Below the pieces are notes generated by a model that searched no databases, was not told where the DNA came from, and saw only the letters and a program-made list of their open reading frames with translations. From contig OZ246887.1 in NCBI GenBank assembly GCA_965231765.1, positions 998,486 through 1,062,485 on the forward strand: a DNA stretch of 64,000 nt, read 5' to 3'. This DNA is from Candidatus Binatia bacterium. GTDB lineage: Bacteria > Desulfobacterota > Binatia > Bin18. Positions 5,217 through 60,917 of the stretch are shown piece by piece; position 1 is the stretch's first letter, and each line of letters begins with the position of its first letter. The position numbers and the translations under genes were made by a program.

Positions 5217-5281
5217 CTGTTGCTCCTTCTATACAGCCTGTACGGGTCCAAGTAGCGCGGACATCCCTGTCCGCTCCGCCA

Positions 5282-6484
5282 TCAAATAACCCCCTGCTCT
5301 TTCAGCTCAGCCAGCCGCTCCTGCGTCAAGCCGAGCTTGCCACAATAAATCTCCTCATTGTGGGTACCCATATGGGTCGGACCAGTCCAACGGATTGTTC
5401 CCGGCGTGCGGCTCAGCTTGGGCACCACGTTTTGCATTTTTATTGGCCCGAGTTCAGGATCAGACACGCTGGTAATCGTCTCCCGTGCCTGAAAGTGGGG
5501 GTCACTCAGAATGCCTTCGATATCGTACACAGGGACAGCGGCACATTGGTACTCGTCAAACTGCTTGAGTGCTTCTTTAAGTGTCTGTTGAGCGATCCAG
5601 CCGCCAACAAGCGCATCCACTTCATCAATATTGGCGACGCGCGCTCGATTATCTTTGAAACGCGGATCATTGATCAAATCGGGCTGACCAATTGCGGCAA
5701 ACACCCGCCCAGCCAAGGCATGCGCGTTCGCAGACAGGGCCAGCCACTTGTCATCTTTGGTCTTGTAAATATTGCGCGGCGCACCAATAGACGGAACGCG
5801 ATTCCCAGTACGCTGCTGGACTGTCCCCAGCTGATCATAGCTCAGCGCCTGATCCCCAGTAATGGTAAAAATTGGCTCCATGACGCTGAGGTCAATCATT
5901 TGACCTTTGCCGCTCTTGTTATCCCGCTCATATAAGGCAAACATCACCGACCAGGTACCAAACTGGCCAGCCACCGCATCGGCCAAACCAAATCCTGGCA
6001 ACGTTGGCGGCCCGTCCGGCTGGCCTGTGATATGTGCAAAGCCGCTCATTGCCTCGGCCAAGGTCCCAAAGCCTGGTTTATCTTTATATGGCCCGGTTTG
6101 CCCAAAGCCCGACACCCGGGCCACAATGAGTCGCGGGTTGAGCGCATGCAAGACATCCCAGCCGAGTCCCCAGCGCTCCAACGTCCCCGGACGAAAATTC
6201 TCAGTCAGCACGTCTGCATCAGCAACAAGCTGCTTCAAGATCTCCTGCCCTTCGGGCTTATTGAGGTCTAATGTTACGCATTTTTTATTCCGGTTGGTGA
6301 TCTTCCACCACAGCGGGATGCCGTCTTTCGCTGCCCCAAGCGAGCGCAAGCTATCTCCCAGACGTGGGTGCTCAACCTTGATCACCTCAGCCCCGAAGTC
6401 GCCCATATTTTGAGAGATCGTTGGTGAGGCAAAAAGGACAGAGATATCAACGACTTTGAGTCCTTCGAGCGGCAGAGTTCCCAT
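5282..6484 (-). CDS. family III CoA-transferase (CaiB/BaiF)
   Basis: LEGLKVVDIS..GDFGAEVIKVE..GD and NRNKK motifs. Confidence 0.9.
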   Translation of the reverse strand: MGTLPLEGLKVVDISVLFASPTISQNMGDFGAEVIKVEHPRLGDSLRSLGAAKDGIPLWWKITNRNKKCVTLDLNKPEGQEILKQLVADADVLTENFRPGTLERWGLGWDVLHALNPRLIVARVSGFGQTGPYKDKPGFGTLAEAMSGFAHITGQPDGPPTLPGFGLADAVAGQFGTWSVMFALYERDNKSGKGQMIDLSVMEPIFTITGDQALSYDQLGTVQQRTGNRVPSIGAPRNIYKTKDDKWLALSANAHALAGRVFAAIGQPDLINDPRFKDNRARVANIDEVDALVGGWIAQQTLKEALKQFDEYQCAAVPVYDIEGILSDPHFQARETITSVSDPELGPIKMQNVVPKLSRTPGTIRWTGPTHMGTHNEEIYCGKLGLTQERLAELKEQGVI

Positions 6485-6798
6485 GGATAGGCATCCCTTC
6501 TGTGCGGTCTTGGTAGCAGTTGTATTAGTGATCGAGACGTCAGTTACGAAGTTGCTGAGGGGAAAATAGAATTTAAAGATACTGACGAGTGGGAATGAGC
6601 TTACAGTCGGTTAAAAGAAGAACGTTCAGCTCGCCAACCTTGGCCAAGTAGAGGCAAAAGAGAAGAATATAGGAAATCCAAGGCTAATACCATCCAAGCG
6701 ATGCCAAAAAGCGGCGCGCCTGCTTAGCGGGGTTAGCCCTGAGAGGCTATTGAAAAACTCCGAAAATGGGGGACGAACAAAAAATAGCGGCCGTTCTC

Positions 6799-10828: not shown

Positions 10829-11674
10829 ATGTTACAGGCAGTCAAACGACAACAGCTCAGCGACGACTGGATCTGGCAGACCATTCGGGAAGAAGCTGCT
10901 CGGGAAGCGGAACAAGAGCCGGTGCTGGCCAGCTTTCTGCACTCGATTATTCTCAACCACTCGTCTCTTGAAGAAGCGCTCAGCTTTCATCTGGCGGGCA
11001 AGCTCACCAACCTCAATCTTCCGTCGATGTCTCTGCGGGACATTATCATGGAAGCCATGACTCAGGATAAAAATATCGGTAAAGCTGTCCGAGCCGATAT
11101 CAAAGGCGTGCGGGAACGCGACCCAGCCTGTTCCACCTATTTACTCCCGCTGCTGTATTATAAGGGTTTGCATGCCCTCGAAGCGTATCGGACTGCTCAC
11201 TGGCTGTGGACCCAGGATCGCAAAACCCTGGCCGCCTGCTTTCAGAACCGGATTTCGGAAGTCTTTGGTGTCGATATCCACCCCGCCGCTCGGATTGGCT
11301 CGGGCGTTTTTATTGACCATGGCACGAGTCTCGTGATTGGCGAGACCGCAGTCGTGGAAGATGAAGTGTCGATGCTCCAAGAGGTCACCCTGGGTGGAAC
11401 GGGAAAAGAGAGCGGCGACCGGCATCCCAAGATTCGGACGGGCGTGCTGATCAGCGCTGGGGCAAAAATCCTCGGCAATGTCGAAGTCGGCGCCAACGCT
11501 AAAGTTGGGGCGGGCAGCGTCGTGCTAAGCGATGTCGCAGCCGGTTGTACCGTGGTTGGTGTTCCGGCCAAAGTCGTTGGGCGCGGTACCCACAGCCACC
11601 CTGCGCTAGAGATGGACCACCAGTTCCCGACCGACGTGAATATTCCAGAATACATCCCGCTTGAAGAGCACTGA
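10829..11674 (+). CDS. cysE: serine O-acetyltransferase
   Basis: SATase N-terminal helices plus hexapeptide repeats DIHPAARIGSGVFIDHGTSLVIGETAVV..GDRHPKI. Confidence 0.85.
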   Translation: MLQAVKRQQLSDDWIWQTIREEAAREAEQEPVLASFLHSIILNHSSLEEALSFHLAGKLTNLNLPSMSLRDIIMEAMTQDKNIGKAVRADIKGVRERDPACSTYLLPLLYYKGLHALEAYRTAHWLWTQDRKTLAACFQNRISEVFGVDIHPAARIGSGVFIDHGTSLVIGETAVVEDEVSMLQEVTLGGTGKESGDRHPKIRTGVLISAGAKILGNVEVGANAKVGAGSVVLSDVAAGCTVVGVPAKVVGRGTHSHPALEMDHQFPTDVNIPEYIPLEEH

Positions 11675-11701
11675 GCACCTTCCCTCTGTACGGCTCAAGA
11701 C

Positions 11702-11920
11702 ATGCTGCGACTGTACGACTATCTTCCGTCCGGCAACGGCTATAAAGTCCGCTTGCTCCTGACCCAGCTTGATACTGCGTTCGAGCGGATCGAACTGGAA
11801 GCCTCGGAATGGATTAATACCTATCGTGCCTTTTGGGAGAAACGCCTGGGTCATCTGGAGTATCACCTGCGTCTTCTTGGCACACTAGCGCTTGAATCCA
11901 CTACACAGAAGCATCTATGA
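11702..11920 (+). pseudogene. gene remnant: GST N-terminal fragment fused to unrelated tail
   Basis: MLRLYDYLPSGNGYKVRLLLTQL resembles the first ~33 aa of a glutathione S-transferase. Resemblance is then lost, and the tail ..FWEKRLGHLEYHL resembles the C-terminus of another family. Confidence 0.45.
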
Positions 11921-14568: not shown

Positions 14569-15771
14569 TCAGCCAATAATGGAGGTGACTCTGAGGCGTT
14601 CAATATCGTCCGAGCTGTAACCCAGTCCCAGCAAAATCTCATCGGTATGCTGACCAAGGGTCGGCGGAGGACTCTGGACCGCGGCTGGGGTATCGGAGAA
14701 ACGCCACACGGGTCCGATCGTCTCAAAGGTCCCAGCCGTCGGGTGCTCAATTTCGCGGACGACATCCAACTCTTGGATCTGTGGATGCTGAAACAGGCTC
14801 ATATAGTTGGTAAACGGCACGGCATCGCCTTGAAACTCATGAATGAGATGCACAATTTCATCGTTTGTCTTTGTCGCAAACGCCTTTTCCCAAATCGGCT
14901 TGACTTCCGCCACATACCGCCCAACCCCAGTGACTTCACGTCCAAAGCCATCAAAGCGCGGGTCGGCCAAGGACTCTTCCATGCCAAGCGAGATCAGGAG
15001 CCGATCCCAGTCTTCACTACTGCCACGCCGCAGACTAAAAAAGACGTAGCCGTCTTTGGTCTTGTAGCCTTCATCAGGCGGCTTGGTATAGCTATCAAGG
15101 TGAAATCCGTACCAGTCGTCCGGATCGGTCATCGACGTCCACATAATGCCCCGCATGTGCAGCAGCGTCCCCAACATACTGACTGAGACCCGCTGTCCTC
15201 CGCCTTTGCGCAACCGATGGAACAGTCCAGCTGTCACTGCTTGAGAGATAAATACGCCTGTGCTGAGACTGGCAACATCCGTGCCTAAACGCACCGGCGG
15301 TTCCCCAATCCGGCCCAGCGAGTTGGTGTAGTCGGCCATCGCTTGAATGACGAGTTCAGCCCCAGGCAGATTGCTCAGCGGACCCTTTTCACCAAAGGCA
15401 CTGACTGCGCAGTAGATCAGTTTGGGATTGAGAACCTGCAAGTCGGCATACCCCAGCCCGAGCTTCTCAGCCTCCCCCGCGCCAAAGTCTTCCAGCACGA
15501 CATCTGCCTGTGTCACCAGGCGCCGCACGATTTCCTGGCCTTCAGCCGTGTGTATATCAAGCCCAAGACTCTTCTTATTGCGGTTGAGACTGAGGAAAAC
15601 TGCGCTCTCATCCCCGATAAACGGTGGTCCCATCGTCCGCGAGGCATCCCCGTCGAGCGGCTCAATCTTCACAATCTCCGCCCCAGCATCGCCAAGACGC
15701 ATCGAGCCAAACGGGCCGCATAACCCTTGGGTCAAATCAACAATGCGATAGTCGGATAGCGCACCAGGCAT
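14569..15771 (-). CDS. family III CoA-transferase (CaiB/BaiF)
   Basis: YRIVDLTQG..LGDAGAEIVKIEP..GD and NRNKKS motifs. Confidence 0.9.
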   Translation of the reverse strand: MPGALSDYRIVDLTQGLCGPFGSMRLGDAGAEIVKIEPLDGDASRTMGPPFIGDESAVFLSLNRNKKSLGLDIHTAEGQEIVRRLVTQADVVLEDFGAGEAEKLGLGYADLQVLNPKLIYCAVSAFGEKGPLSNLPGAELVIQAMADYTNSLGRIGEPPVRLGTDVASLSTGVFISQAVTAGLFHRLRKGGGQRVSVSMLGTLLHMRGIMWTSMTDPDDWYGFHLDSYTKPPDEGYKTKDGYVFFSLRRGSSEDWDRLLISLGMEESLADPRFDGFGREVTGVGRYVAEVKPIWEKAFATKTNDEIVHLIHEFQGDAVPFTNYMSLFQHPQIQELDVVREIEHPTAGTFETIGPVWRFSDTPAAVQSPPPTLGQHTDEILLGLGYSSDDIERLRVTSIIG

Positions 15772-15795: not shown

Positions 15796-16947
15796 CTATG
15801 TTTCAATGCCAAACTCGCGCAGGACTTCCTGAGTATGCTCTCCCTTGAGTCCGCCCGGACGAACTGGGCCAGCTGGGGTTTGACTAAATTCCCACGGCAC
15901 CCCGTCAACGCTGAGCGTGCCCCAATGCGGGCTGTCCATATCAACAATATGTTCGTTCTGCAGCACTTGGGGATGGTAGCGGAGTGCCTCAAAATCCTGG
16001 ACCCGACTATTCGACACCTGCTCCTTGGTCAGCCGAATCACCCACCAAGCAACCGGTTTGGCCCGAAACCGCTCTTCGAGGAGTGGGATCAGTTCCTGAC
16101 GATGCTCGACCCGTTTGGGGTTCGTAGCGAAACGCGGATCATCAATCAGCTCCTCCGCTTTGATGGCCCGGCAGAAGCGCGGCCACTGATCTTCACTGAC
16201 CACTCCAACAGTGATATATTTCTGATCCTCACATAAGAAGGCTTGGTGCGGGACTGTTGTTGTGACTGCACTGCCCATCGGCGCAGGCTGTTCTTGGGTA
16301 GCAAAATACTCGGCCAAGCGACTTGTTTGCAGCGACATCGACGCCGCTAACATTTCGATTTCGATATTCTGGCCCTGGCCTGTTTTCTCACGTGCCAACA
16401 AGGCTTGCAGGACGGCTTCGACAATCATCGAGCTCGTATTGATATCCAGATGCGCAAAATGACGAAACATCTCACCCTGCGAGCCTGGCTGGCCAGTCGT
16501 ACTACACCAACCCGAGAAAGCTTGAACAGTCGGATCAACGCCGGCCTCTTTTGCCATTGGCCCGGTTCTTCCGTAGGCCGAAGCTGAGACATACACCATC
16601 TTGGGATTCACCTGCGACACAACATCATAGCCAAGCCCCAAGCGTTCAACCGCCCCCGGCCGCATGTTTTGGATAAACACATCACTCTTCTCAAGCATCT
16701 TGAGCGCAATAGCGCGGTCAGCCTCTTGCTTAAGATCTAAGACGATATGTCGCTTATTAAAGTTGGCCGAGATATACAATACAGCCGAACCCTTAATCGG
16801 CGGAGGAATATAATGTGACAACTCGCCATCCGGAGACTCGACTTTGATGACATCAGCCCCCATCTCACCCAACAGCTTAGAAGCCCACGGGCCAACCGCT
16901 GCAATACTCAGATCAAAGACACGAATACCATCAAGAATACCAGGCAT
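15796..16947 (-). CDS. family III CoA-transferase (CaiB/BaiF)
   Basis: MPGILDGIRVFDLS.. with ATG at 16947 after GGAGGA. NFNKRH motif. Confidence 0.9.
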   Translation of the reverse strand: MPGILDGIRVFDLSIAAVGPWASKLLGEMGADVIKVESPDGELSHYIPPPIKGSAVLYISANFNKRHIVLDLKQEADRAIALKMLEKSDVFIQNMRPGAVERLGLGYDVVSQVNPKMVYVSASAYGRTGPMAKEAGVDPTVQAFSGWCSTTGQPGSQGEMFRHFAHLDINTSSMIVEAVLQALLAREKTGQGQNIEIEMLAASMSLQTSRLAEYFATQEQPAPMGSAVTTTVPHQAFLCEDQKYITVGVVSEDQWPRFCRAIKAEELIDDPRFATNPKRVEHRQELIPLLEERFRAKPVAWWVIRLTKEQVSNSRVQDFEALRYHPQVLQNEHIVDMDSPHWGTLSVDGVPWEFSQTPAGPVRPGGLKGEHTQEVLREFGIET

Positions 16948-17029
16948 GATTCCTCCACTGATCAGGACTGAGGGCTGAGTCAAAATATGACTCTTCGTGA
17001 TTCCCCCGCTCAGTCCTCATCACTCCGTC

Positions 17030-21452: not shown

Positions 21453-22271
21453 TTAATCGCCCACGGCGAGCATTTCGGCAATTTCATCGAGATACTCTTT
21501 CAGAGACAATCCGTGGCCTTTTGCCAAAATCGCCAGCGTATCGATCTTTGTCCGCTCTCCCCTTTCGATTCTTCGCACCTGGCGTTCAGAAAGTCCTTGA
21601 ATCTCGGCTTGCTTGATCCCACGCTGCTTGCGCAATGCGGCAACGGTCGCTCCGAATCGAATGTCATACAGCAGTCTTTCGCGTTCCTTTTTCTCACGCC
21701 ACGCATCATCTTTCAGGCAGCGAACCGCGTCAAAATCGATATGGACATCGCCCTCAGGCCAGTGCAGATAACTGCCTTCGCTGGAGATGGTAAATGAAGA
21801 ACGGTGTTGTGCTGGAATGCGCTTCAGGGCGGGCATTTCTTCAAAACCAACTCTGAACAAGCTGTGGTCACAGGCCATGACAAAGAGCTCATCGTGAGTG
21901 ACCTGGGCAGCGGCAATGAGTTGATCCGGACAGCCAAGACTCCAGGCCATGAGCACACGCTTTGGGACCTCTTTCCCCGAGTGGACAAGAATACGTCGGC
22001 TGATTCTGAGTTTTGCCTCATAGAGCATCTGGGGTAAAAACTGAGCGTTGTCGTCTTCTCGGACGAAAAGGGTTCGGAGATGGTTTCGATGACGTACAGC
22101 ACGGACAAACTCACTGACAGCAGGAAGGTCCGCAACAGAGGTGAGCACGAAAATATCCCGAGCGTTTACCTTTTTCAGATCCAGCTTTCGAAAAACGATG
22201 AAAGAAGGCGGAATGATGTCATAGCTAAATGGGTCCTGGGCCCAGACGGTCATTTCAGTAGGCTTTGACAT
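21453..22271 (-). CDS. DUF2442-like domain protein with C-terminal XRE-type HTH
   Basis: ATG at 22271. FTISSEGSYLHWPEGDVHIDFDAV (DUF2442-like) and the C-terminal HTH LSERQVRRIERGERTKIDTL. Confidence 0.6.
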   Translation of the reverse strand: MSKPTEMTVWAQDPFSYDIIPPSFIVFRKLDLKKVNARDIFVLTSVADLPAVSEFVRAVRHRNHLRTLFVREDDNAQFLPQMLYEAKLRISRRILVHSGKEVPKRVLMAWSLGCPDQLIAAAQVTHDELFVMACDHSLFRVGFEEMPALKRIPAQHRSSFTISSEGSYLHWPEGDVHIDFDAVRCLKDDAWREKKERERLLYDIRFGATVAALRKQRGIKQAEIQGLSERQVRRIERGERTKIDTLAILAKGHGLSLKEYLDEIAEMLAVGD

Positions 22272-22273
22272 GT

Positions 22274-22563
22274 TCAGCTCCCTCTCTCTACTTTGGCTTC
22301 CCACTCGATATAAATCGCGTCTCTGTGCCGGAGCACCAAGCTTAAAAGTTCCCGCTGTTCTTTGGGGGAAACTTCATGTTGAAAGCTAATTTTCTGCGTT
22401 TACACGCACCGAAAAGGACGCGTATCTCCCACTTGTCCGGTTTACGGGCGTGAAAATGAGGTGGTTCGTGATCTGAGGAATTGAACCATAGGTCCACACC
22501 GGCCAGTTGAAAACATTCCAACTTTCCCAAAAAGCAGCTCCTCCGCTTTCTCCTAGAGAGCAT
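22274..22563 (-). pseudogene. DUF4160 family gene, frameshifted
   Basis: DHEPPHFHA motif in one frame. The expected C-terminus KEQRELLSLVLRHRDAIYIEWEAKV continues in another frame after the C5A3 run near 22361-22368. Confidence 0.6.
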
Positions 22564-22992: not shown

Positions 22993-25320
22993 ATGCCAGA
23001 TACGAAGTGGTTGAGTCCGATCATTATGGAACCGGGCAAGCTAAAACGCGAAGCGGTGAAGCGCAGGAAGGCATATCAGGAACTGTCCGTGGAAGAGTCT
23101 GGGATACGCGGTCATCTTGATGACGGGTGGGAGATTGACAGAGAGCTAAAAAGAAAAACTCGATTACGAAAGCGGTTGTCTCATGACCAAATACTTGAAA
23201 ATCGAGTCTGGTACCTCTTCTATCTACTCGGATATCCTGAAATAAGTTCAGGAAGGAATTTCCAAATCACAATCCACCGTAAAAGTGCGGACCCTTATAA
23301 GAAGCAAATTGATGTTCTAGCTAAGGATGACGAAACGGTCATTGTCACAGAATGTAAATTATCTGACCATATTTATCGCCGAAGCCTACAAAAAGACGTT
23401 GAGGAGTTTTCTAACCTCAAAGGACCTATTTCCAGTGCGATAAAGAAACACTACGGACCTGACTTCAAACCAAAGATAATTTGGCTCTTTGTAACAAACA
23501 ATATCGTGTGGTCAGATCCTGATAAACAGAGAGCCGCTGGAGCAAAAATTGATGTAGTTACGGAGAGGGAGCTCAGTTACTACTTGCAGATAGCTGACCA
23601 CCTCCGTTCAGCAGCGCGATTTCAGTTTCTCGCGGAGTTCCTTAAGACTCAGAAAATCCCCGAGATGGAGAATGTACGCGTCCCTGCTGTCAAGGGAAAG
23701 TTAGGTGGTAAGGTTTTTTACTCATTCGTCTCAACTCCAAGACAAATGCTGAAAATATCATTTGTGAATCATCGATCTCTCAGCGATCCTAGCGGAGCAC
23801 CATCTTATCAGCGCCTTGTCAACAGAACGCGACTTCGTTAGATCTCGCAATTTATTTACGATGGCGGTTTCTTCCCTACCAACATCTTGGTGAACTTTTC
23901 AGAGAAATGTCGGTTTGACCCTATGGCGAAGGATAGCGACAATAACGTCACTTTTGGAAACCTCCACCTCCCATGCCGATATAGATCAGCTTGGATTATT
24001 GATGGACAGCACCGTCTTTATGGTTACGCCCCTTTGTCTGATGAACATCTGAACCAGAACATTATGGTCGTTGCGTTTGAGGAGTTGAAAAAAGAAGAAG
24101 AGGCGAATCTCTTTGTTACGATCAATCATGAACAGAAGTCTGTTCCCAAAACATTGCTGGACGACTTGGAGGGTGAGCTTAAATGGGGATCTACTCGTCC
24201 GACGGAAAGAATAGGAGCAATCAGTGCGCGTCTCATTGGGCTTCTCAATAACGATGTTGGAGAAGCACTGTACCAACGTGTCACACGGCAAGGTATCCCC
24301 CCATCGGAAAAGACATGTCTTACAGTGCCAGCGTTGAAGGACGGACTTCGTCGGTCAGGACTCGTTGGGCAAGCTATTCTCAAAAAGAAGGAGTATGCTC
24401 CTGGCCCCCTTTGCGGAACTGGGGATTCGGAGACACTGGATAGAGCACGCGTGGTCCTGAACAGCTATCTTCAGCTCCTTGCAAGCGCAAATCCCAAACA
24501 ATGGGAAGCAGGCCGGAAGGGATATCTCTGTACGAATACGTCCCTGCAAGCTTACCTGCAATTGCTTGGCGCCACAATCAGCTACATGGAGTCCAACAAA
24601 GGGCTCTCGGCTAGGGAACTTGAACCTAGTGAGATCATCGCTGAGATAGAGGAATACATTGATCCTATCCTCAAGTGGTTGGCCAAAGCATCCCCTGTAC
24701 AAATGGAGAAGGAATTCAAGGTCCAGTTTGGCTCTGGAGGCCCTAGAGAGTACTTCTATCGGCTCTGCCAAATGATCCGCAATGAATTTTCTGACTTCTC
24801 ACCGGAAGGAATTGACGAGTGGACAGAAGAACAATCAGAAGAGCGCGTTGCAGATGCGGATAAAAAACTCAAGGATCTCAACATCCAAGTGCAAAAGACA
24901 ATTTTCGACATTTTCAAACAGCAGTATGGTGCGAGCGGTGATTCATACTGGAACAAGGGAGTCCTGGATAAGAAAATTAAAATACATGCGTACGAGAAAT
25001 CCCAAGATGATGATGACGAAGATCGTCTACCCCTCGAAAACTATCTGGACTTCATCGAATATAAGAAGATCGTAGAAAACAAGACTCATTGGCCCCTATT
25101 CAAATCCATTTTCGACATCCCGGACCCAGGCGAGAAGGGTTATACCAAGAACATCCGATGGATGGAACGTGTCAATGAACTTAGGCGGATTCCTGCCCAT
25201 CCCACAGAGAAACGTCGCTACAAGGCAAGTGACTTTGAATACATTGACTATATCCATGAAAAATTCATCAGTTGTGTCAAGACAGCTAACCTCAGTTCTG
25301 TGAAGGTAAACGGTGAGTAA
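22993..25320 (+). pseudogene. PD-(D/E)xK + DGQHR (DndB/ParB-like) + Rx4H-tail fusion protein, interrupted by one in-frame TAG (23839-23841)
   Basis: Track ORFs 22993-23841 and 23887-25320 are in the same frame. Read-through gives ..YQRLVNRTRLR*ISQFIYDGGFFPTNILVNF.., a contiguous DGQHR-family core. The DGQHR motif is at 24001-24015. Confidence 0.7.
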
Positions 25321-26155
25321 CATAGTTCCCGTTCTAAAATGGGCTGGGGGGAAACGCTGGTTTGTGGCACAGTACTCAGCATTGCTACGTCGAGATGCAA
25401 TCAGGTATTTGGAGCCCTTCCTTGGTAGCGGAGCTATTTTCTTTCATACCAAACCTCAGCGGGCAATACTAAGTGACTTGAACCAGGAACTAATTGCAAC
25501 CTACGAGTCGCTACGTGACGAGCCGCAAGAGGTATGGAAGTATCTTTGTTTCCACGGACAAAAACATAGTAAGGAGTATTACTATCTTGTTCGGAGTCAG
25601 AAACCACGCACCTCAGCTCGGCGGGCAGCAAGATTTATCTATTTGAATAGGACCTGTTTCAACGGACTCTACCGTGTTAATCTCCAAGGCGTGTTCAATG
25701 TACCAAAGGGAACAAAAGATACGGTTATTCTCCCTACTGATGACTTTGGGCTTGTCTCCAAGATCTTACAATCATCATCTCTAACATCGCGAGATTTCTC
25801 ATACACCATTACAGAGGCAACGGAAGGCGACCTGCTATACGTTGACCCGCCGTACACTGTGCGTCATAACAATAACAACTTCCTCAAGTATAATGAGTGT
25901 ATCTTTTCTTGGCGTGATCAGAGACGCCTAGCCGATTGTCTCCTCCAGGCGGCGAAACGTGGTGCTTGCATACTAATGTCAAATGCAGATCACCCATGCA
26001 TCCATGACTTGTACAGTGACAGAGTCTGGCAACGCCTTTCTGTTAGCCGATTCAGCCGTCTAGCTTCATCTGCGAAACATCGCAAAGAGACCACGGAACT
26101 AGTAATTTCCAATTACTTGAACAAGCATGCTGAACAAGTATATCCACGGTCTTGA
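25313..26155 (+). CDS. Dam-class (alpha) N6-adenine DNA methyltransferase
   Basis: KWAGGKRW, FLGSGAIFF (FxGxG) and LLYVDPPYT. GTG start overlaps the upstream TAA stop. Confidence 0.9.
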   Translation: MSNIVPVLKWAGGKRWFVAQYSALLRRDAIRYLEPFLGSGAIFFHTKPQRAILSDLNQELIATYESLRDEPQEVWKYLCFHGQKHSKEYYYLVRSQKPRTSARRAARFIYLNRTCFNGLYRVNLQGVFNVPKGTKDTVILPTDDFGLVSKILQSSSLTSRDFSYTITEATEGDLLYVDPPYTVRHNNNNFLKYNECIFSWRDQRRLADCLLQAAKRGACILMSNADHPCIHDLYSDRVWQRLSVSRFSRLASSAKHRKETTELVISNYLNKHAEQVYPRS

Positions 26156-26507
26156 AAATACAGGCATTTTTCATTCTTCGCTCCTCGGTGTCAGATATGG
26201 AAGAAAGCACAAGGCACAAACATACCTGGAGTAATTCGATTTTACTGAATAGTCATCAGGAAATGCTCTAACAGGGACTCGCAATAATTCGGACTGCTGA
26301 AGCTGCCATCAGAGCCAGTATAGAGCGGTTGGATTGGTCACGCAGAGAGGCTGTCGGGTTACGCTCTGCTAATCTGACCTACGGCCGAAAGGGCAGGGCA
26401 GGGTGGTAAAGAGTCGCGGCATGCTCCTAGGCGCCCGAGATCGCCTAGTCAAGGCGGGAGACAATTGGTATGGTCTACCCGACAGAGCACACATAAGGAG
26501 GCGCAAC

Positions 26508-27755
26508 ATGAAGATATCCATGTTTCACCTGATGCCCTACCGGGACCTGCCGGACGATTTTGAACAACGCTACCACTCCGTCTGGGTTGATCCGCCCTGG
26601 AACGAACTGGGCGACGCCAAAAAAGTTGGCCAATACTACAACTGGACGCTTGATGAACTCATTTATGCCGCCAAATCCGGCATGGATGGCATCTGTGTCA
26701 ATGAACACCACCAAAATGCCTACGGCTTTATGCCAAACCCCAACCTAATGGGCTCAGTTTTGGCGCGGGCAACCAACGATATGGACGTGGCTATCGTGCA
26801 AATGGGTGCCACCTTGCCAACGACCAACCCGCCGACCCGCGTGGCAGAAGAATACGGCATGCTCGATACGATCAGCGGTGGTCGTTTAGTCGCTGGTATG
26901 CCTTTGGGGACAGCCATGGATGCCACGCTGTGTGCCGGCATTACCCCGATTGAACAGCGTGAGCGCTATTACGAAGCGCATGATCTGATCCTCAAAGCCT
27001 GGACCGCCGACGACATTTTCGCCTGGAATGGCAAATATTATCAATTGCCAAAGGTCAACGTCTGGCCACGGCCGATCCAGCAACCGCATCCGCCTATCTG
27101 GATCCCCGGATTGGGCAGCCTCAGCACTTGGGAATTTGCCGCTCAGCACAGCCACTGCTACTGCTTTCTCAGCTATTATGGTCCCAAGGCGGGTAAAAGC
27201 GTCATGGACGGGTTTTGGCAGTTCATCGATAAACGCGGGATCGAACCCAATCCGTACCGAGCCGGCTTTCTGCAACTCGTCGCCGTCGCCGAAACAGACG
27301 CCAAAGCCGAAGAGCTGTACGAGAAGCACATCCAGTACTTCTATAACAAATCCTTGCATATCCCGGCTGAATACTTCTTCCCACCGGGACATCAAGACTA
27401 TCGCAGTTTAGAAAACAACGTTCGTAAGGGCATTTTCAAGAGCTATTTTGATAAACTCGCAGATATCCCCAACTGGAAGTTCAAAGACTTTGTCGATGAG
27501 GGTTTTGTCATTGCTGGGAGTCCGTCAACCGTCCGTGACATGCTCACCGATGCAGTCAAAGATCTGCGGATCGGCAACCTGATGACGCTGTTACATATTG
27601 GCTCCATGCCGCATGACTTAACGCTCAAGAACATTGATATGTTCACCAGCGAAGTCATGCCTCACATGCACGACATGTGGGACGATAAGTGGGAAAATCA
27701 TTGGTGGCCAGAAAAGCTTAAAGCCAAACGTGAAACCACGCTTGCCGCGCTGTAA
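26508..27755 (+). CDS. LLM class flavin-dependent oxidoreductase
   Basis: MKISMFHLMPY.., with ATG at 26508 after AAGGAGG. Luciferase-like TIM-barrel pattern. Confidence 0.85.
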   Translation: MKISMFHLMPYRDLPDDFEQRYHSVWVDPPWNELGDAKKVGQYYNWTLDELIYAAKSGMDGICVNEHHQNAYGFMPNPNLMGSVLARATNDMDVAIVQMGATLPTTNPPTRVAEEYGMLDTISGGRLVAGMPLGTAMDATLCAGITPIEQRERYYEAHDLILKAWTADDIFAWNGKYYQLPKVNVWPRPIQQPHPPIWIPGLGSLSTWEFAAQHSHCYCFLSYYGPKAGKSVMDGFWQFIDKRGIEPNPYRAGFLQLVAVAETDAKAEELYEKHIQYFYNKSLHIPAEYFFPPGHQDYRSLENNVRKGIFKSYFDKLADIPNWKFKDFVDEGFVIAGSPSTVRDMLTDAVKDLRIGNLMTLLHIGSMPHDLTLKNIDMFTSEVMPHMHDMWDDKWENHWWPEKLKAKRETTLAAL

Positions 27756-28579: not shown

Positions 28580-29821
28580 ATGGGAAAAGCTTTGAACGGA
28601 ATTCGTGTTCTGGATATGACCCACGTCCAGATGGGGCCTTCTTCTACCCAGATCCTGGCGTGGCTTGGTGCCGATGTCATCAAGGTCGAATTGCCGGGCC
28701 GGGGTGATATCACCCGCCAGCAGCTCCGGGACCTCCCTGACGTCGACAGCCTGTATTTCACCATGCTCAACTGTAACAAGCGCAGCATCACCATCAACAC
28801 CAAGACCAACACGGGTCAGGCGATCTTCCGCAAGCTTATTGAGGCCTGTGATGTGCTGGTGGAGAATTTTGCGCCTGGCGCCCTAGACCGACAGGGCTTC
28901 AGCTGGGACGCCATCCAGAAAATCAATCCTCGCCTGATCTATGCCTCGGGCAAGGGGTTCGGCTCTGGTCCATTCGCGGACTGCAAAGCGTACGAGACCG
29001 TCGCCCAGGCCATGGGGGGTGCGATGAGCACGACCGGCTGGGACGATGGCCCGCCGACCAGTACGGGCGCCCAGATCGGGGATTCGGGGACCGGAATTCA
29101 CCTGGTCGCTGCTATTCTGGCAGCACTCTTTCAGCGGGAGCAAACCGGACGCGGCCAGCGGGTCGAGGTCGCCATGCAGGACGCAGTGCTGAACCTGTGC
29201 CGGGTCAAGCTACGCGACCAGCAGCGGCTTGCCCACGGCCCCTTGAAGGAATATCCTCAATACCCGGACAAGACCTTTGGCGAGGCGGTGCCGCGTTCCG
29301 GCAACGCATCCGGTGGTGGCCATCCAGGCAGAGCGCTCAAATGTGAGCCCGGCGGTCCCAACGACTACATCTATGTGGTCGTCCAGGCCCAGGTCTGGGA
29401 GCCGCTGATGCAGCTCATCGGACGTGCAGAGCTTGTCGGCCATCCAGATTACGCAACGCCGGAGGCCCGTCTTCCACACCTTGATGAGTGTTTCAAAATT
29501 GTCGAGGAATGGACGCAGCAACACACCAAGTACGAAGCCATGAAACTCCTCAACGAGGTCAACGTTCCCTGCGGCCCAGTCCTCGACATGAGAGAGTTGA
29601 TGGAAGATGAGTCGCTTGCCGCACGGGGCATTGTGGTCGAGGTCAAGCATCCGCAGCGCGGTACATTCAAGACCGTCGGCTGCCCGCTGCAGCTCTCCGA
29701 TTCGCCGGTCAAAGTGAAGACCCCACCACAACTTGGCGAGCATACCGAGGAAATCCTGAGGGAGTTTGTCGGTTACGGAGATAAGGACATCGAGGAGGCG
29801 CAGGCCGAAGGCGCGATCTGA
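28580..29821 (+). CDS. frc: formyl-CoA transferase-like family III CoA-transferase
   Basis: Long collinear resemblance to Frc as I recall it: [46 protein letters not shown]. Confidence 0.7.
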
Positions 29822-40582: not shown

Positions 40583-41656
40583 TTAATCCGGAAAATTCGG
40601 CATGACCTCTTCCATCAGCAGGCGTTGAGAGTTTTCCCAGCCTTCTTTGTTCTCCAACTGATCGAACGTCAAGACGAGCAAACAGCCAAAACCACCAGTG
40701 TCGTCCACCATGGCACCTAGCTTGTCCGTCACAGCCTGTGGTGATCCGACGAGCCAGACATACTCAGCCAGGTATTCCATAGTCACATCAGAATCCGGCA
40801 CTTCGGGGTGATGTTTAAACAAACTGACCATACCAAACGACTTAAACAGTGGCAGCAAATACTCAGCATAGACACGGCCGAGCATACCGTTGACGGCTTT
40901 GTCTTTGGCCTCTTTATCAGTTTCGGCCACATACACTTCACGTGAGACGTGCCACTCACTACGGGACGGTTCACGCCCGGCAGATTCCGCTCCCTCGACG
41001 ATGGCATCCCAGTGAGTTTTGAGATAGCCATTACTCAGGGCAATACTCATTGGCATGAAGCCTTTGGCCCCACACATCTTGAGCGTATCCGAGCCTGGCG
41101 TCAGACCAGCAATGCCAATAGGCGGATGCGGATTCTGAAATGGTTTGATGTGGAACTTGAGCGTGTCCAGCATCGTGTCGATACGGTTGACCGACCAGTA
41201 GTCGCCTTTAAATTCAAACGGCTCTTCGCTCTCCCACAGCTTCAGAATAATATCGAGAGCCTCCATAGTCATGCGGCGGTTCTCACCCCCTGCCCCATCC
41301 ACGTTAAAAAGTTTCCAGTCACTGGGCAGCCCGCTGGTCCCCACCCCGAACATAAAACGTCCTTGGGCCATGTGATCCAGAAAAGCAACACGGTGGGCTA
41401 ATTCAACAGGGTGATGATATGGAAGCAGATGTGCACCGGGGCACAGTTTGATATTCTTTGTGCGTTGTAAACCCTGCGCAATGAGCAGGTCTGGTGCTGG
41501 GTTGGGCTCCCACGGGGCGGTAAAATGCTCCCCCATCCAGGCTTCATGAAAGCCTAATTTGTCAACGAGTTCCAAATGATCAAGGTCCCACTGGTGCCCA
41601 TCGTATAAACTTCTTTCGGGTGGATGCGACGGCATCATAAACACGCCAGCTTTCAT
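40583..41656 (-). CDS. LLM class flavin-dependent oxidoreductase
   Basis: MKAGVFMMPSHPP..EAWMGEHF luciferase-like pattern. Confidence 0.85.
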   Translation of the reverse strand: MKAGVFMMPSHPPERSLYDGHQWDLDHLELVDKLGFHEAWMGEHFTAPWEPNPAPDLLIAQGLQRTKNIKLCPGAHLLPYHHPVELAHRVAFLDHMAQGRFMFGVGTSGLPSDWKLFNVDGAGGENRRMTMEALDIILKLWESEEPFEFKGDYWSVNRIDTMLDTLKFHIKPFQNPHPPIGIAGLTPGSDTLKMCGAKGFMPMSIALSNGYLKTHWDAIVEGAESAGREPSRSEWHVSREVYVAETDKEAKDKAVNGMLGRVYAEYLLPLFKSFGMVSLFKHHPEVPDSDVTMEYLAEYVWLVGSPQAVTDKLGAMVDDTGGFGCLLVLTFDQLENKEGWENSQRLLMEEVMPNFPD

Positions 41657-57238: not shown

Positions 57239-57253
57239 TAAGGAGATTATGGA

Positions 57254-58297
57254 ATGAGAATGCGCTCAGCGTCCGGTAGTATTGGAATTGCCGGAGCTAT
57301 TGCCGGTATGCTGCTGAGTTTACCGACAGTATTGTCCGCCCAAGAAACCCAAGAAACCCCAGCAGCACGAGAAATATTGGCAACAGTCGACGGACAGGCC
57401 ATCACGGCAGCCGAGATTGAAAGGAGCATCAAAGGCCAGATGCTCCGCATCAATAATCAGGTCTATTCGGTCAAAAAAAAAGCCGTTGATGCCCTGATTG
57501 CTGACCGCTTGCTGAGCCGGGAAGCCACCAAACGGAACATCTCTCGGGCGGAGCTGCTCAAGCAAGAAGTGGCGGATAAAATCGAAGCTGTCACTGATAA
57601 AGAAGTTGAAGAATTTTACAACAAAAACAAAGCCCGCATGGGCAATAAACCCTTAGAGGAGATGAAAGCTCGCGTCACCCAACATCTCCAGAGCACCAAG
57701 AAGACACAACGCCAGAAAGCCTTCACTGCTGGGCTGCGTAAAACAGCAAATGTCCAGATGAATCTGCTGCCACCAATTGTGGAGGTCGCGGTTGATGGGG
57801 CTCCCTCCAAAGGGCCAGCCGAGGCTCCTGTGACGCTGGTCGAATTTTCGGACTATCAATGACCGTACTGTGCACGAGTTCAGGCTGAACTCAAAAAAGT
57901 CCAAGAAGCCTATAAAGACCAAGTCAAAATCGTTTTTAAAGATTTCCCCTTATCGCATATCCACCCGCAGGCGCAGAAGGCAGCCGAAGCCGCCCGGTGC
58001 GCTGGCGAACAAGGGAAGTACTGGGATTATCACGATGTCTTATTCCACAACCCCAAAGCCCTACAGATCGATAAACTGAAAAAGTACGCAGTAGACCTCA
58101 CGCTCGACCCCGCAACGTTTGACACCTGCCTCGACAGTGGCAAACATGCAGCTGCCGTCCGCAAAGATGTGGCCCAAGGTTCACAACTCGGGGTGAGTGG
58201 TACGCCAGCCTTCTTTGTCAACGGCCGTTTTATCTCTGGAGCGCAGAAGTTCCCGGCTTTTCAAGAGCTGATTGATAGTGTTTTAGCCGCTCAGTAA
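57254..58297 (+). CDS. secreted SurA-N-like + DsbA-like thioredoxin-fold protein with in-frame TGA (candidate Sec) at 57860-57862
   Basis: The track ORF stops at ..VEFSDYQ*. The same frame stays open for 145 more codons: PYCARVQAELKK..GVSGTPAFFVNGRF... So the TGA occupies the first Cys of the FxDxxCPxC motif. Confidence 0.7.
57876..57892 (+). promoter_or_regulatory. candidate bacterial SECIS hairpin
   Basis: GAGTTCA-GGC-TGAACTC starts 13 nt after the TGA and has G residues in the apical loop. Confidence 0.5.
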
Positions 58298-58317: not shown

Positions 58318-58393
58318 TTGCCCTCTCTCGTGCGGGAGAGAGGGCAAGATCGGAGAAAACCCTCACCCCGGCCCTCTCCCTAGAGGGAGAGGG
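58318..58393. repeat. two REP-like palindromes of family B (TTGCCCTCTCTC..GAGAGAGGGCAA and CCCTCTCCC-taga-GGGAGAGGG)
   Basis: Read directly between the convergent stops at 58297 and 58414. Confidence 0.7.
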
Positions 58394-58413: not shown

Positions 58414-59466
58414 CTATAAATCCCGCACCGCTGGTACGACCTCTTCAGCAAACCGTCGCATGCTTTCCAAGACCTGGGCTTGGGGAATTAAGCCGCCCGG
58501 ATTAAACCAACAAATGATCTGATTCATACCGCACTGTTGGTGGGCGTTGCGGATCTTTGCAATGCATTGGTCTGGCCGACCGTAGAGTGCCATCGTCTCA
58601 TCAATCATCTCCCAGGTAACGGCATTCATGCGTTCTCGGACTTCTTTCAGATACGCATACGATGCGGTTTGATCTCGCTCGCCGAGACGCGCCTGGGCGC
58701 TGACCGTGCGAAAGTAGTGCATAATGCTCGGCTCGACCTGCTGGCGTATCTTGGCATCTGTGTCTGCGACGTACAGCGGAAAGAGGACTGCTGTGTCGGC
58801 CGTATCCTGATGCCCAGCCTGTTGAAAGGCCTGATGATAGCCAGCCAGATGACTGGGCAACTTTGGCAGTGGATTGATCGGCGACGCCACAAATATGGGA
58901 TAGCCACGCTGTCCGGCAAACGTTGCCGTCTCTGGACTATTCGCCGCAATCCGCACGGGTGGATGCGGTTTCTGGAACGGCTTTGGCACGACAGATGTGG
59001 GCGGGATCTGAAAATACGTGCCAGCATGGGCAAAGGTGTCTTGGGTCCAGGCTTGCTCCATAATTGTCAGCGCCTCTTCAAAGCGCTCCCGACTCTCATC
59101 GCGCGGGACGCCCAAGCCTTGAAAATGGATCGCAATAGTGCCCCGCCCAACCCCTAACTCTAATCGCCCTTGACTGAGCAAATCGACTGTGGCCGCGTCT
59201 TCAGCCAAGCGTAAAGGGTGCTGCAAAGCCAACAAGGCCACAGCCAAACCCAAACGAATCCGCTGCGTTCGCTGTGCCAGCGCCGTGGCAACTATGAGTG
59301 GTGAGGGCATAATCGAAAATGGTCGATTAAAATGCAGCTCAGCCAGCCAGGCGGTATCAAAGCCCAGCTCATCCGCATATTCGATTTGTTCCAGCGTTTC
59401 CTGGTAACGGGTGACTTCGTTCTGCTCCGGGGCACATGGGAGTTGGTAAAAAAGGCCAAATTTCAT
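58414..59466 (-). CDS. LLM class flavin-dependent oxidoreductase
   Basis: MKFGLFYQLP..FDTAWLAELHF luciferase-like pattern. Confidence 0.85.
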   Translation of the reverse strand: MKFGLFYQLPCAPEQNEVTRYQETLEQIEYADELGFDTAWLAELHFNRPFSIMPSPLIVATALAQRTQRIRLGLAVALLALQHPLRLAEDAATVDLLSQGRLELGVGRGTIAIHFQGLGVPRDESRERFEEALTIMEQAWTQDTFAHAGTYFQIPPTSVVPKPFQKPHPPVRIAANSPETATFAGQRGYPIFVASPINPLPKLPSHLAGYHQAFQQAGHQDTADTAVLFPLYVADTDAKIRQQVEPSIMHYFRTVSAQARLGERDQTASYAYLKEVRERMNAVTWEMIDETMALYGRPDQCIAKIRNAHQQCGMNQIICWFNPGGLIPQAQVLESMRRFAEEVVPAVRDL

Positions 59467-59570: not shown

Positions 59571-60917
59571 ATGCGCAAGTCAAAAGCAGCAGGCAATCAA
59601 AACCTGCCTGCCGTGTTCTCCCCCCCTATTGGCCTAGACGAAAGAGGTATGGTAACTCTTTTCAGTATGCCAGGAAGGAAATCGAAAGTTGATCGCCGGA
59701 ATGCCGTGCAAGCCCCCTCATTCACCCCTGCTGCGCGAGCGGAAACTCCACCGCCGCCGAGCGGACCGCTTATGCTGATTCGCGTGCTCGCCCTGCTGGG
59801 GTTCGGAATTGGTACCTATCTTTCGATATTGCACTATCAGACGGGAGCGGATGAGCTCATTACGGCTCCGTTCTGCGAAGCTGGAGCACTGATCGATTGC
59901 AAGTCGGTCCTCAATAGCGCGTATGCAACACTGTTTGGATTACCCGTGGCCTTATGGGCGGCTGGAGCCTACGCCGTAATCCTGGCTTTGGCTTTTATTC
60001 CCGCTTTGATTGCCAAGACACAGCTTTTAATCCTGACCTGTGTGTGGATGTTTGTTTTTGCCTTGTATATGGCCAGTATTTCTTTTCTCAAACTCCAGTC
60101 CGTGTGTCTGCTGTGTGCTGGTCTCTACCTGGTCAACATTGGCCTGTTGGTCGGGGCAATGCTGCTCATCCGTTCATCAAAAACCTTAAAAACCTTTAAT
60201 CAGTCGCAGCTTGTGTATGGGCTGGCTGGCTGCGCGGTCCTGATCGGCGGGATTAGCGTGTGGCAGACACAGCAAGCCCAAGCACATGTTTCGCCGCTTG
60301 ATTTTATTGCTCCACCTCCTGAACGGCTCGATACAAGCTTTGTCAACTATTACAACCAACAGCGAGAAGTCGCGGTCCAGGGCGAGGAACGTCATGTCAA
60401 AGGCGCACCTGACGCACTGCTCACGATTATCGAGTTTGTTGATTTTCGGTGTCCAAGTTGTGCCTTTGCACGTGATTCTCTGGCTCAACTCTATGCGACG
60501 AACCCAGGCGATGTCCGGATTGTCTTTCATCACTACCCGCTCGATCAATCCTGCAACCCGATTGGCCAACAAGTCCACCCTTCAGCATGTGCGGCCGCCA
60601 TTGCCTCAGAGTGCGCCAGTGATCAGGACCGCTTCTGGGAGTATGCCGATCGCCTGTTTGCTGACCAAAAGGCGAACCCCAGGCGCTTCACCCACGAGGA
60701 CCTCACATCGCATGCCGAAGCGCTGGATCTCGACGCTGAACGTTTTAACACCTGCTTAGACGATCCGAGTATGGAAGAGCGCATCCGCAAAGATGTTGCA
60801 GAGGGTCACCGCCTTGAGATTAAAGCCACCCCGACCCTGATCATCAATGGCCGGGTGATTGAGGGACTGCCGCCACCCAAAAAGCTGGCGACCCTGGTGA
60901 CGATGCATAAGCGGTAG
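59571..60917 (+). CDS. VKOR-family membrane protein fused to a DsbA-like thioredoxin domain (start uncertain)
   Basis: Multi-TM N-half with loop cysteines (FCEAGALIDC) and CLLC in a helix. C-half has EFVDFRCPSCAF and KATPTLIINGR. Confidence 0.8.
   Translation: MRKSKAAGNQNLPAVFSPPIGLDERGMVTLFSMPGRKSKVDRRNAVQAPSFTPAARAETPPPPSGPLMLIRVLALLGFGIGTYLSILHYQTGADELITAPFCEAGALIDCKSVLNSAYATLFGLPVALWAAGAYAVILALAFIPALIAKTQLLILTCVWMFVFALYMASISFLKLQSVCLLCAGLYLVNIGLLVGAMLLIRSSKTLKTFNQSQLVYGLAGCAVLIGGISVWQTQQAQAHVSPLDFIAPPPERLDTSFVNYYNQQREVAVQGEERHVKGAPDALLTIIEFVDFRCPSCAFARDSLAQLYATNPGDVRIVFHHYPLDQSCNPIGQQVHPSACAAAIASECASDQDRFWEYADRLFADQKANPRRFTHEDLTSHAEALDLDAERFNTCLDDPSMEERIRKDVAEGHRLEIKATPTLIINGRVIEGLPPPKKLATLVTMHKR

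Follow-up and report, generated by a model that had tools for sequence, protein, structure and literature searches.

What does an in-frame TGA mean when it stands exactly where an exported thioredoxin-fold protein carries its catalytic cysteine? This question is raised by a locus at positions 57254-58297 of a 64-kb stretch of DNA (64,000 nucleotides of contig OZ246887.1, from a Candidatus Binatia bacterium), which is called the window in the following. A first reading made from the letters alone, here termed the sequence-only reading, had seen in this place a secreted DsbA-like protein whose first CxxC cysteine is replaced by TGA, followed by a hairpin, and had taken it for a selenoprotein. 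Our analysis leads to a similar answer: 57254-58297 is very probably a single gene, in which UGA codon 203 would be decoded as selenocysteine (Sec), so as to give an exported DsbA-like oxidoreductase, of which gene callers keep only 202 amino acids. Genes with TGA at this codon are referred to as Sec-type and those with a cysteine codon as Cys-type. The gene and the parts of its product are as follows.

57240-57245, forward strand: Shine-Dalgarno-like AAGGAG, 8 nucleotides 5' of the ATG, as read off directly
57254-58297, forward strand: complete selenoprotein gene as proposed, 202 + Sec + 144 = 347 codons and then TAA, by translation
57254-57340, forward strand: probable signal peptide of the Sec (secretory) type (MRMRSASGSIGIAGAIAGMLLSLPTVLSA, followed by QE), with basic n-region, hydrophobic core and a small residue at -1, judged from the sequence alone
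57341-57808, forward strand: N-terminal helical domain resembling the SurA N-terminal chaperone domain (Pfam SurA_N_3 below threshold; model of homologue P0001)
57809-58276, forward strand: DsbA / Thioredoxin_4 catalytic domain, residues 186-341 (PF13462, PF01323; fold match)
57860-57862, forward strand: in-frame TGA, the proposed Sec codon, residue 203, aligned with the invariant C203
57860-57871, forward strand: redox motif U-P-Y-C (translation and alignment)
58202-58207, forward strand: Thr-Pro of the cis-proline loop, T317-P318, both columns invariant and ahead of a beta-strand in the model
58295-58297, forward strand: true stop TAA; homologues terminate at the same alignment column

An interrupted frame and its conservation

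The open reading frame (ORF) 57254-57862 ends with the residues APVTLVEFSDYQ and the TGA at 57860-57862. Past the TGA, the same frame continues with 144 sense codons up to the TAA at 58295-58297. The earliest in-frame ATG, GTG or TTG in this continuation is a GTG at 58169, which is codon 103, and the preceding 102 codons are free of starts. Its translation contains the motifs PYCARVQAELKK, CAGEQGKYWDYHD and GVSGTPAFFVNGRF. For the Pfam search, the 347-amino-acid product was used with Cys in place of the TGA. Both Thioredoxin_4 (PF13462, E 9e-32, residues 186-341) and DSBA (PF01323, E 4e-27, 95.7 bits with a cutoff of 25.6) extend across the TGA. A DsbA-like thioredoxin domain and a UxxC motif, here U-P-Y-C, are the two marks of the DsbA-like selenoprotein family, and the product carries both.

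When the read-through product was used as the query of a protein search, full-length homologues came up in the thousands, together with two truncated ones, P0057 (202 amino acids, 97% identity) and P0096 (205 amino acids, 81% identity), which reflect gene-caller products of 202-205 amino acids in several assemblies. Within the alignment of 31 full-length homologues, both cysteines of the CxxC motif are invariant, and the TGA of the window occupies the first position. These results are in good agreement with what the sequence-only reading had stated about the gene: the TGA stands at the first Cys of a DsbA-like CxxC motif (C203), the frame continues behind it without a start codon, the continuation encodes the remainder of the DsbA fold, as the Pfam domains spanning the TGA demonstrate, and the length of 347 amino acids is correct, with the predicted 202-amino-acid gene-caller product found as P0057.

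The TGA is not confined to the window. In L001-L004 and L086, which stem from separate ENA assemblies, TGA is found in the same column and the frame is open to the same end. Altogether, at least four independent assemblies share the identical TGA; they cover the window's own species and a sister species, the latter at a synonymous divergence (dS) of 0.23-0.38. This speaks against the miscall that the sequence-only reading had thought worth excluding. Between the window and L002 (approximately 81% identity), the part past the TGA shows 19 synonymous and 8 non-synonymous changes, and the ratio of non-synonymous to synonymous divergence (dN/dS) is 0.105. Before the TGA this ratio is 0.24, so the constraint is looser there than downstream. 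For the comparison of the window with L005, the downstream part has a dN/dS of 0.087. Further decay of the gene, which according to the sequence-only reading would point to a broken copy, was not found, given the downstream dN/dS of 0.105.

The closest full-length homologue, P0001 from locus L005 (84% identity), has TGC at the position in question and reads CPYC, and all Cys-type homologues are single full-length proteins. When species-representative genomes were scanned with the alignment of the 31 homologues, 80 loci were kept, of which 55 have TGC in the catalytic column, 15 TGT and 5 TGA. The latter are L009 and L010 (50-53% identity) and, from metagenome-assembled genomes (MAGs) of Acidobacteriota, L036, L037 and L079 (41-42%); all five have open frames of 143-151 codons past the TGA. 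The alternation of Cys and Sec that the sequence-only reading had expected at this column can therefore be followed over a wide range, from TGC in L005 to TGA in the orthologues at 97% and 81% identity and in the five genomes at 41-53%.

A second scan was directed at metagenomes with a DNA pattern encoding D-Y-Q-TGA-P-Y/F-C-A. The pattern occurs in at least 120 contigs; almost every downstream frame that is complete measures 141-160 codons (approximately 100 contigs), equal to one DsbA domain. Sec-type DsbA-like genes are thus common in soil and sediment metagenomes. When compared by BLAST with either half of the window protein, the listed metagenome contigs fall into several subfamilies, and the N-terminal domain of the window protein is shared by 11 loci. 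The closest named DsbA-like locus is L007, again from Candidatus Binatia. The HisD encoded in the window shares 72-75% identity with that of named Candidatus Binatia MAGs; the contig that contains L002 encodes a HisD at 89%, and a further ENA/NCBI contig one at 98%. Judged by the position of the TGA, its conservation and the selection acting downstream of it, the arrangement is far beyond chance.

Directly in front of the TGA, the window encodes D-Y-Q (57851-57859). This context is found in 5 of 5 Sec-type but only 7 of 76 Cys-type members (Fisher p = 1.6e-4, with kinship ignored), where the Sec-type members counted are those found without motif bias (L009, L010, L036, L037 and L079). It could indicate a single Sec-type clade, or else a codon-context need for Sec insertion.

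The fold is in line with the domain assignment. As a stand-in for the window protein, we took the AlphaFold structure of its Cys homologue P0001 (predicted local distance difference test, pLDDT, 94; predicted template-modelling score, pTM, 0.81). In this model, the CPYC motif lies at the N-terminus of the first thioredoxin-fold helix, and the invariant Thr-Pro precedes a strand, as is the case for the cis-Pro loop of the DsbA family. A Foldseek search with the C-terminal domain of the model gave 3gyk (TMt 0.87, root-mean-square deviation, rmsd, 1.8) and BdbD (TMt 0.83). By sequence, the closest PDB relatives are a Silicibacter thioredoxin-like oxidoreductase (3gyk), Corynebacterium diphtheriae DsbA and TsdA, and Bacillus BdbD. 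The P0001 model hence shows the whole set of DsbA/BdbD-type features, namely a thioredoxin fold with an inserted helical domain, CxxC at helix 1 and the cis-Pro loop.

The N-terminal part of the model consists of a beta-hairpin followed by long helices, with a pLDDT above 90. The corresponding SurA_N_3 match (PF13624, residues 3-120, E 2.4e-5) stays below the gathering threshold with 24.7 bits versus 27.2, and many homologues have precomputed PF13624 or PF13623 matches; the resemblance of the window protein to SurA_N appears real but weak. All full-length homologues in the alignment start with an equivalent hydrophobic stretch. The first 45 residues of the window protein contain no Cys and hence no lipobox, and the signal ends in ...TVLSA, followed by QE. 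The N-terminus is therefore best described as a probable secretory signal peptide of the type that lacks a lipobox.

The hairpin downstream of the TGA

57876-57892, forward strand: hairpin resembling a selenocysteine insertion sequence (SECIS), GAGTTCA/TGAACTC, with a stem of 7 base pairs and the loop GGC at 57883-57885 (folding; geometry of the bacterial SECIS, bSECIS)

The hairpin GAGTTCA-GGC-TGAACTC begins 13 nucleotides past the TGA, and the spacing from the TGA to the loop is 20 nucleotides. Its position, its distance and the G in its loop had all been described by the sequence-only reading and are confirmed by the sequence. The bSECIS model comprises an apical loop of 3-9 nucleotides, an upper stem of 4-16 base pairs, a distance of 16-37 nucleotides between UGA and loop, a G as the first or second loop nucleotide, mostly with G or U after it, and a minimum free energy of at most -7.5 kcal/mol (PMC13188914). 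With its loop of 3 nucleotides (GGC), its stem of 7 base pairs and its spacing of 20 nucleotides, the window hairpin satisfies the geometry of this model.

Taken alone, such a hairpin is weak evidence, and it is the comparative evidence that counts. Every member of the subfamily to which the window gene belongs has a stem of 7-8 base pairs and a loop G(G/U)C, and the hairpin ends exactly 30 nucleotides past the TGA. The stems themselves are specific to the lineages (GAGTTCA/TGAACTC, GGGTACA/TGTACTC, GAGGGTCG/CGACCCTC and GAGAGTCG/CGACTCTC), and the peptides encoded by the hairpins vary as well (VQAEL, VQSVL, VGPTL). On an alignment of 23 columns, which holds 7 distinct sequences only and whose register was centred on the hairpin by hand, 6 of 8 pairs vary on both sides and 93% of the cells pair, versus 16-46% after sliding of the partner columns; the covariation score was not reached by any of 500 shuffles. 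For L010, one compensatory pair entails a replacement of Glu by Val, and therefore argues for selection on the RNA beyond selection on the protein alone. A hairpin that is not conserved would, according to the sequence-only reading, have spoken against a selenoprotein; what we observe across the Sec-type subfamily is conservation in position together with compensatory changes.

This is in good agreement with the distribution of such hairpins over the wider family. Hairpins of bSECIS geometry with stems of at least 7 base pairs are present in 58% of 120 Sec-type genes, versus 6% of 79 Cys-type genes, and follow 7% of random TGA triplets. With stems of at least 6 base pairs, the comparison of Sec-type and Cys-type genes yields a Fisher p of 1.6e-18.

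Among the listed metagenome loci L087-L206, we also observe other Sec-type DsbA/Thioredoxin_4 subfamilies that have hairpin classes of their own. These include GTCCAGC-GGTC-GCTGGAC and (GGT)ACGTC-CGTGA-GACGT(ACC), as well as a second hairpin, CTCCAGC-AGGT-GCTGGAG, located 34 nucleotides past the TGA.

A further observation concerns the Cys-type locus L005 (gene at 860-1822, Cys codon at 1385). Here, the hairpin is kept base for base and the D-Y-Q context is kept as well, although dS is approximately 0.7 elsewhere in the downstream part. The simplest reading of the kept hairpin and D-Y-Q suggests L005 as a recent switch from Sec to Cys.

Searches with Rfam gave no SECIS and no tRNA-Sec family, neither in the whole window at the gathering threshold nor in 57780-57980 at E <= 10. 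This null result is uninformative, because no Rfam model for generic bacterial SECIS matched.

Decoding of the UGA and competing explanations

Several observations weigh against decoding of the UGA as Sec. A first group concerns the hairpin. In context, its folding energy amounts to -7.7 to -7.9 kcal/mol, whereas the isolated hairpin has only -6.2 kcal/mol. The energy is thus borderline with respect to the cutoff of -7.5, and the SECIS check which the sequence-only reading had proposed comes out in favour in geometry but right at the threshold in energy. A filter of <= -7.5 kcal/mol on the isolated perfect hairpin excludes the window's own element. The z-score of folding from shuffles is 0.13, i.e., not beyond chance, and stems of at least 7 base pairs with the same geometry follow approximately 7% of the 2,344 TGA triplets in the window; it is because of these two values that the hairpin alone was called weak evidence above. 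The small, hand-centred alignment behind the covariation belongs here, too, as does the fact that the Cys-type L005 carries an identical hairpin, and thus there is no separation of Sec and Cys among the closest relatives. A second group concerns the machinery. The 64-kb window contains no selA, selB, selD or tRNA-Sec; ARAGORN found no tRNA in the window and none in nine Sec-type loci; and tblastn with E. coli SelA, SelB and SelD gave no match in the window or in approximately 2 Mb of the relatives' loci. A literature search for Sec in Binatia yielded no paper on the subject. The residual doubt about the Sec reading stems from this unseen Sec machinery of the genome and from the sequence-based nature of the evidence.

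The Pfam annotation of 30 window ORFs likewise includes no SelA, SelB or SelD. It consists of CoA-transferases, luciferase-like monooxygenases, dehydrogenases, aldolase/thiolase-type enzymes, a peptidase, a transporter and a DNA methylase, along with the housekeeping genes prfA, prmC, hisD and a murA-like gene.

Across all 207 sequences, the sole tRNA-Sec reported by ARAGORN lies on metagenome contig L140 (1553-1648, reverse strand; anticodon TCA), approximately 1.2 kb upstream of a Sec-type DsbA-like gene (L140:2853-4133, forward strand). The protein encoded there begins with a lipoprotein-like signal (...LAAC...), ends in a peptidyl-prolyl isomerase domain of the cyclophilin type, and belongs to another subfamily than the window protein. 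This tRNA-Sec is the only direct trace of Sec use in the wider family, and it comes from a distant relative.

The explanation that survives best besides Sec is a read-through of the UGA with another residue, be it Trp or Cys by near-cognate decoding or Cys by a Sec-like pathway, which would still deliver a full-length product. It profits from the fact that the inserted residue is not identifiable from sequence, from the Sec machinery being unseen for this genome, and from the energetic weakness of the window hairpin. Yet the UGA replaces the catalytic Cys, which is the classic position for Sec, and a Trp at the nucleophile would abolish activity in a domain that is under strong purifying selection. 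Moreover, this explanation leaves unaccounted for a position-conserved, covarying hairpin with a G-containing apical loop, i.e., the SelB-binding type, the strong enrichment of such hairpins in Sec-type genes, and the tRNA-Sec beside the family member on L140. We consider it improbable.

Alternatively, termination at the TGA could be real, with a functional 202-amino-acid secreted SurA_N-like product and a DsbA-like part that is either untranslated or made separately. Gene callers indeed give a product of 202-205 amino acids in several assemblies (P0057, P0096), and bacterial Sec insertion being inefficient, some truncated product is expected anyway. However, the 144 downstream codons are more tightly constrained than the part upstream, 102 codons past the TGA pass without a start codon, and the Cys-type homologues are all single full-length proteins. 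A C-terminal protein translated on its own would have neither the active site nor the first strand of the fold and is implausible. We concede a very slim chance to termination.

That the gene is a pseudogene or the TGA a sequencing error, with TGC or TGT turned into TGA by nonsense mutation or miscall, is effectively refuted by the conservation and selection data: the TGA is one base away from the TGC or TGT of most homologues, the closest full-length homologue has TGC and the window is without Sec machinery, but at least four independent assemblies agree on the TGA, as does a sister species (dS 0.23-0.38), the downstream frame is intact with a dN/dS of 0.105, and this column again holds TGA, with full-length frames, both in distant genomes and in metagenome contigs (at least 120).

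A genome-wide reassignment of TGA was considered and ruled out. Of the 54 other long ORFs in the window, 16 end with TGA, and the sequence beyond these stops is non-coding-like. A search for other TGA-interrupted genes in the window gave only adjacent genes that share a frame by chance. A continuation at 11672-11920 consists of 81 open codons past the TGA of a serine acetyltransferase gene (10829-11674); it contains ...MLRLYDYLPSGNGYKVRLLLTQL..., resembles the N-terminus of a glutathione S-transferase-like protein, and is probably a small or truncated separate gene instead of a read-through product.

The VKOR neighbour, known relatives and biological meaning

58320-58393, no strand assigned: two perfect inverted repeats of 10 base pairs (58320-58345 and 58372-58393), possible transcription-end hairpins
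58414-59466, reverse strand: luciferase-like monooxygenase, conserved neighbour (Pfam PF00296, E 2.8e-70)
59571-60917, forward strand: VKOR-DsbA fusion, Cys-type with CPSC (Pfam VKOR E 1e-20 and Thioredoxin_4 E 3e-26)

The DsbA-like gene and the luciferase-like gene are convergent, and the 116-bp gap between them harbours the inverted repeats GCCCTCTCTC/GAGAGAGGGC and CCCTCTCCCT/AGGGAGAGGG. A terminator scan did not call the repeats at 58320-58393, because they have no T-run. The luciferase-like gene is syntenic in L001-L003, L086, L009, L181, L006 and L008, and the order of DsbA-like gene, luciferase-like monooxygenase and VKOR-DsbA fusion is kept down to approximately 50% identity.

With the VKOR-DsbA fusion, a candidate membrane re-oxidant is encoded 1.3 kb downstream of the DsbA-like gene. 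VKOR is the analogue of DsbB and hence the obvious candidate for this role, and actinobacterial enzymes of the BdbD/DsbA-MdbA type work with VKOR as re-oxidant. Given the synteny, the VKOR-DsbA protein probably re-oxidises the Sec-type DsbA-like protein in a quinone-linked manner, or else acts as its partner.

In L009, the VKOR-DsbA fusion gene (5077-6774) itself shows a TGA (6292-6294) at the first Cys of CxxC, within EFVDFR*PAC (the asterisk marks the TGA). The TGA is followed by 156 open codons, and a hairpin AGCGCC-CGTGC-GGCGCT is located 12 nucleotides downstream. This locus therefore contains two adjacent Sec-type genes. All other VKOR-DsbA neighbours examined (window, L001-L003, L007, L010 and L086) have TGT.

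A mode of action can be proposed as follows. The hairpin 13-30 nucleotides past the UGA would act as SECIS: while the ribosome pauses at the UGA, it would recruit SelB, loaded with Sec-tRNA(Sec) and GTP. The product would then be exported via its N-terminal signal peptide. Holding unfolded client proteins is probably the role of its SurA_N-like helical domain, while the selenolate, or a selenenylsulfide with Cys206, would exchange with client cysteines. Recycling of the active site is probably the task of the neighbouring VKOR-DsbA membrane protein, which would use quinones for it. We tentatively suggest, as a possibility that we would not yet bet on, that the SurA_N-like/DsbA(U) protein and VKOR-DsbA form a selenium-dependent module of oxidative folding in the envelope, which would be found widely among bacteria of soils and sediments (Binatia, Acidobacteriota and others) and in some lineages, such as that of L009, would have Sec in both carriers.

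Some further features of the gene content were noted. Four family III CoA-transferase paralogues (5282-6484, 14569-15771, 15796-16983 and 28580-29821) and three luciferase-like monooxygenase genes (26403-27755, 40583-41656 and 58414-59466) make the set of these genes in the 64-kb window unusually dense. In L001-L003, mobile-element genes flank the syntenic block (IS66, DDE transposases and a Cas12f/TnpB-like fragment), and the window holds DUF2442/HTH genes (21453-22304) and a D12 adenine methylase (25313-26155), which points to a mobile-element-rich genome.

How does the window protein relate to known systems? UxxC DsbA-like selenoproteins were predicted in 2005 in Sargasso Sea data, with nine sequences and their SECIS hairpins shown (PMC1088965), and later in Anaeromyxobacter, Desulfovibrio and Desulfotomaculum (PMC1794560). 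A subsequent survey counted 45 DsbA-like selenoprotein genes in 41 organisms (PMC5029168), and a selenoproteome review of 2026 lists a "DsbA-like protein form 1" (PMC13188914). The window protein shares with this family (PF01323) the DsbA fold, Sec for the first Cys of CxxC as predicted here, the stem-loop just past the UGA with a G in a small apical loop, and the wide distribution of Cys homologues. In contrast to the Sargasso family, which was assigned to COG2761 (FrnE-type), it is best described by PF13462 Thioredoxin_4 (BdbD type), and it differs further by its putative signal peptide, its SurA_N-like domain of approximately 150 amino acids and the VKOR-DsbA gene alongside.

The best NCBIfam match of the window protein is NF041057, the Rcas_1661 family of thioredoxin-like (seleno)lipoproteins (E 1.5e-36, residues 135-342). 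Members of this family are exported and occur in Sec and Cys versions, as is proposed for the window protein and seen in its homologues. With 126.2 bits, however, the curated cutoff of 190 bits is missed, and unlike NF041057, the window protein has no lipobox Cys and an additional N-terminal helical domain. It is a relative of NF041057, not a member.

On the structural side, BdbD and the actinobacterial DsbA-MdbA proteins (PDB 3eu3; 4pwo/4pwp; 7unn; 3gyk) have the same catalytic fold as the P0001 model (TMt 0.83-0.87, rmsd 1.8-1.9), with CPxC at the N-terminus of helix 1 and the cis-Pro loop. These solved relatives, at 24-31% identity, are all Cys proteins and none has a SurA_N-like domain.

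Regarding the RNA element, the SECIS of E. coli fdhF and fdnG is likewise a hairpin immediately 3' of the UGA within the coding region, and its apical loop opens with G, followed by G or U. We take the loop context of the window, CAGGCUG, to resemble the fdhF apical loop. Compared with the E. coli elements, the window hairpin has a shorter and weaker stem, a loop of 3 nucleotides and no bulged U, and binding of SelB is a prediction.

From this comparison, the SurA_N-like fusion and the VKOR neighbourhood are architectural variations and not a new principle. DsbA-like UxxC selenoproteins with SECIS hairpins have been predicted since 2005, and the window gene adds a case from Candidatus Binatia without changing a concept. 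There are practical consequences for annotation. Databases hold "SurA-like" fragments of 202 amino acids (P0057; 205 in P0096), from which the catalytic domain was lost through standard gene calling, and several MAGs as well as at least 120 metagenome contigs are mis-annotated in the same way. The natural Sec/Cys pair formed by the window protein and P0001, at 84% identity, offers a handle on the effect of selenium in a DsbA-type oxidase.

Judging from this gene, the uncultured Candidatus Binatia would employ selenium in the redox machinery of their envelope. In the 2026 review (PMC13188914), the terms "VKOR", "vitamin K" and "SurA" occur nowhere in the text, and neither a chaperone-fused Sec oxidoreductase nor a VKOR-linked selenoprotein is mentioned. 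If the envelope module proves true, a subfamily of chaperone-fused, exported Sec oxidoreductases and a VKOR-linked selenoprotein would join the catalogue of selenoproteins, and this would be the first indication of Sec use in Binatia.

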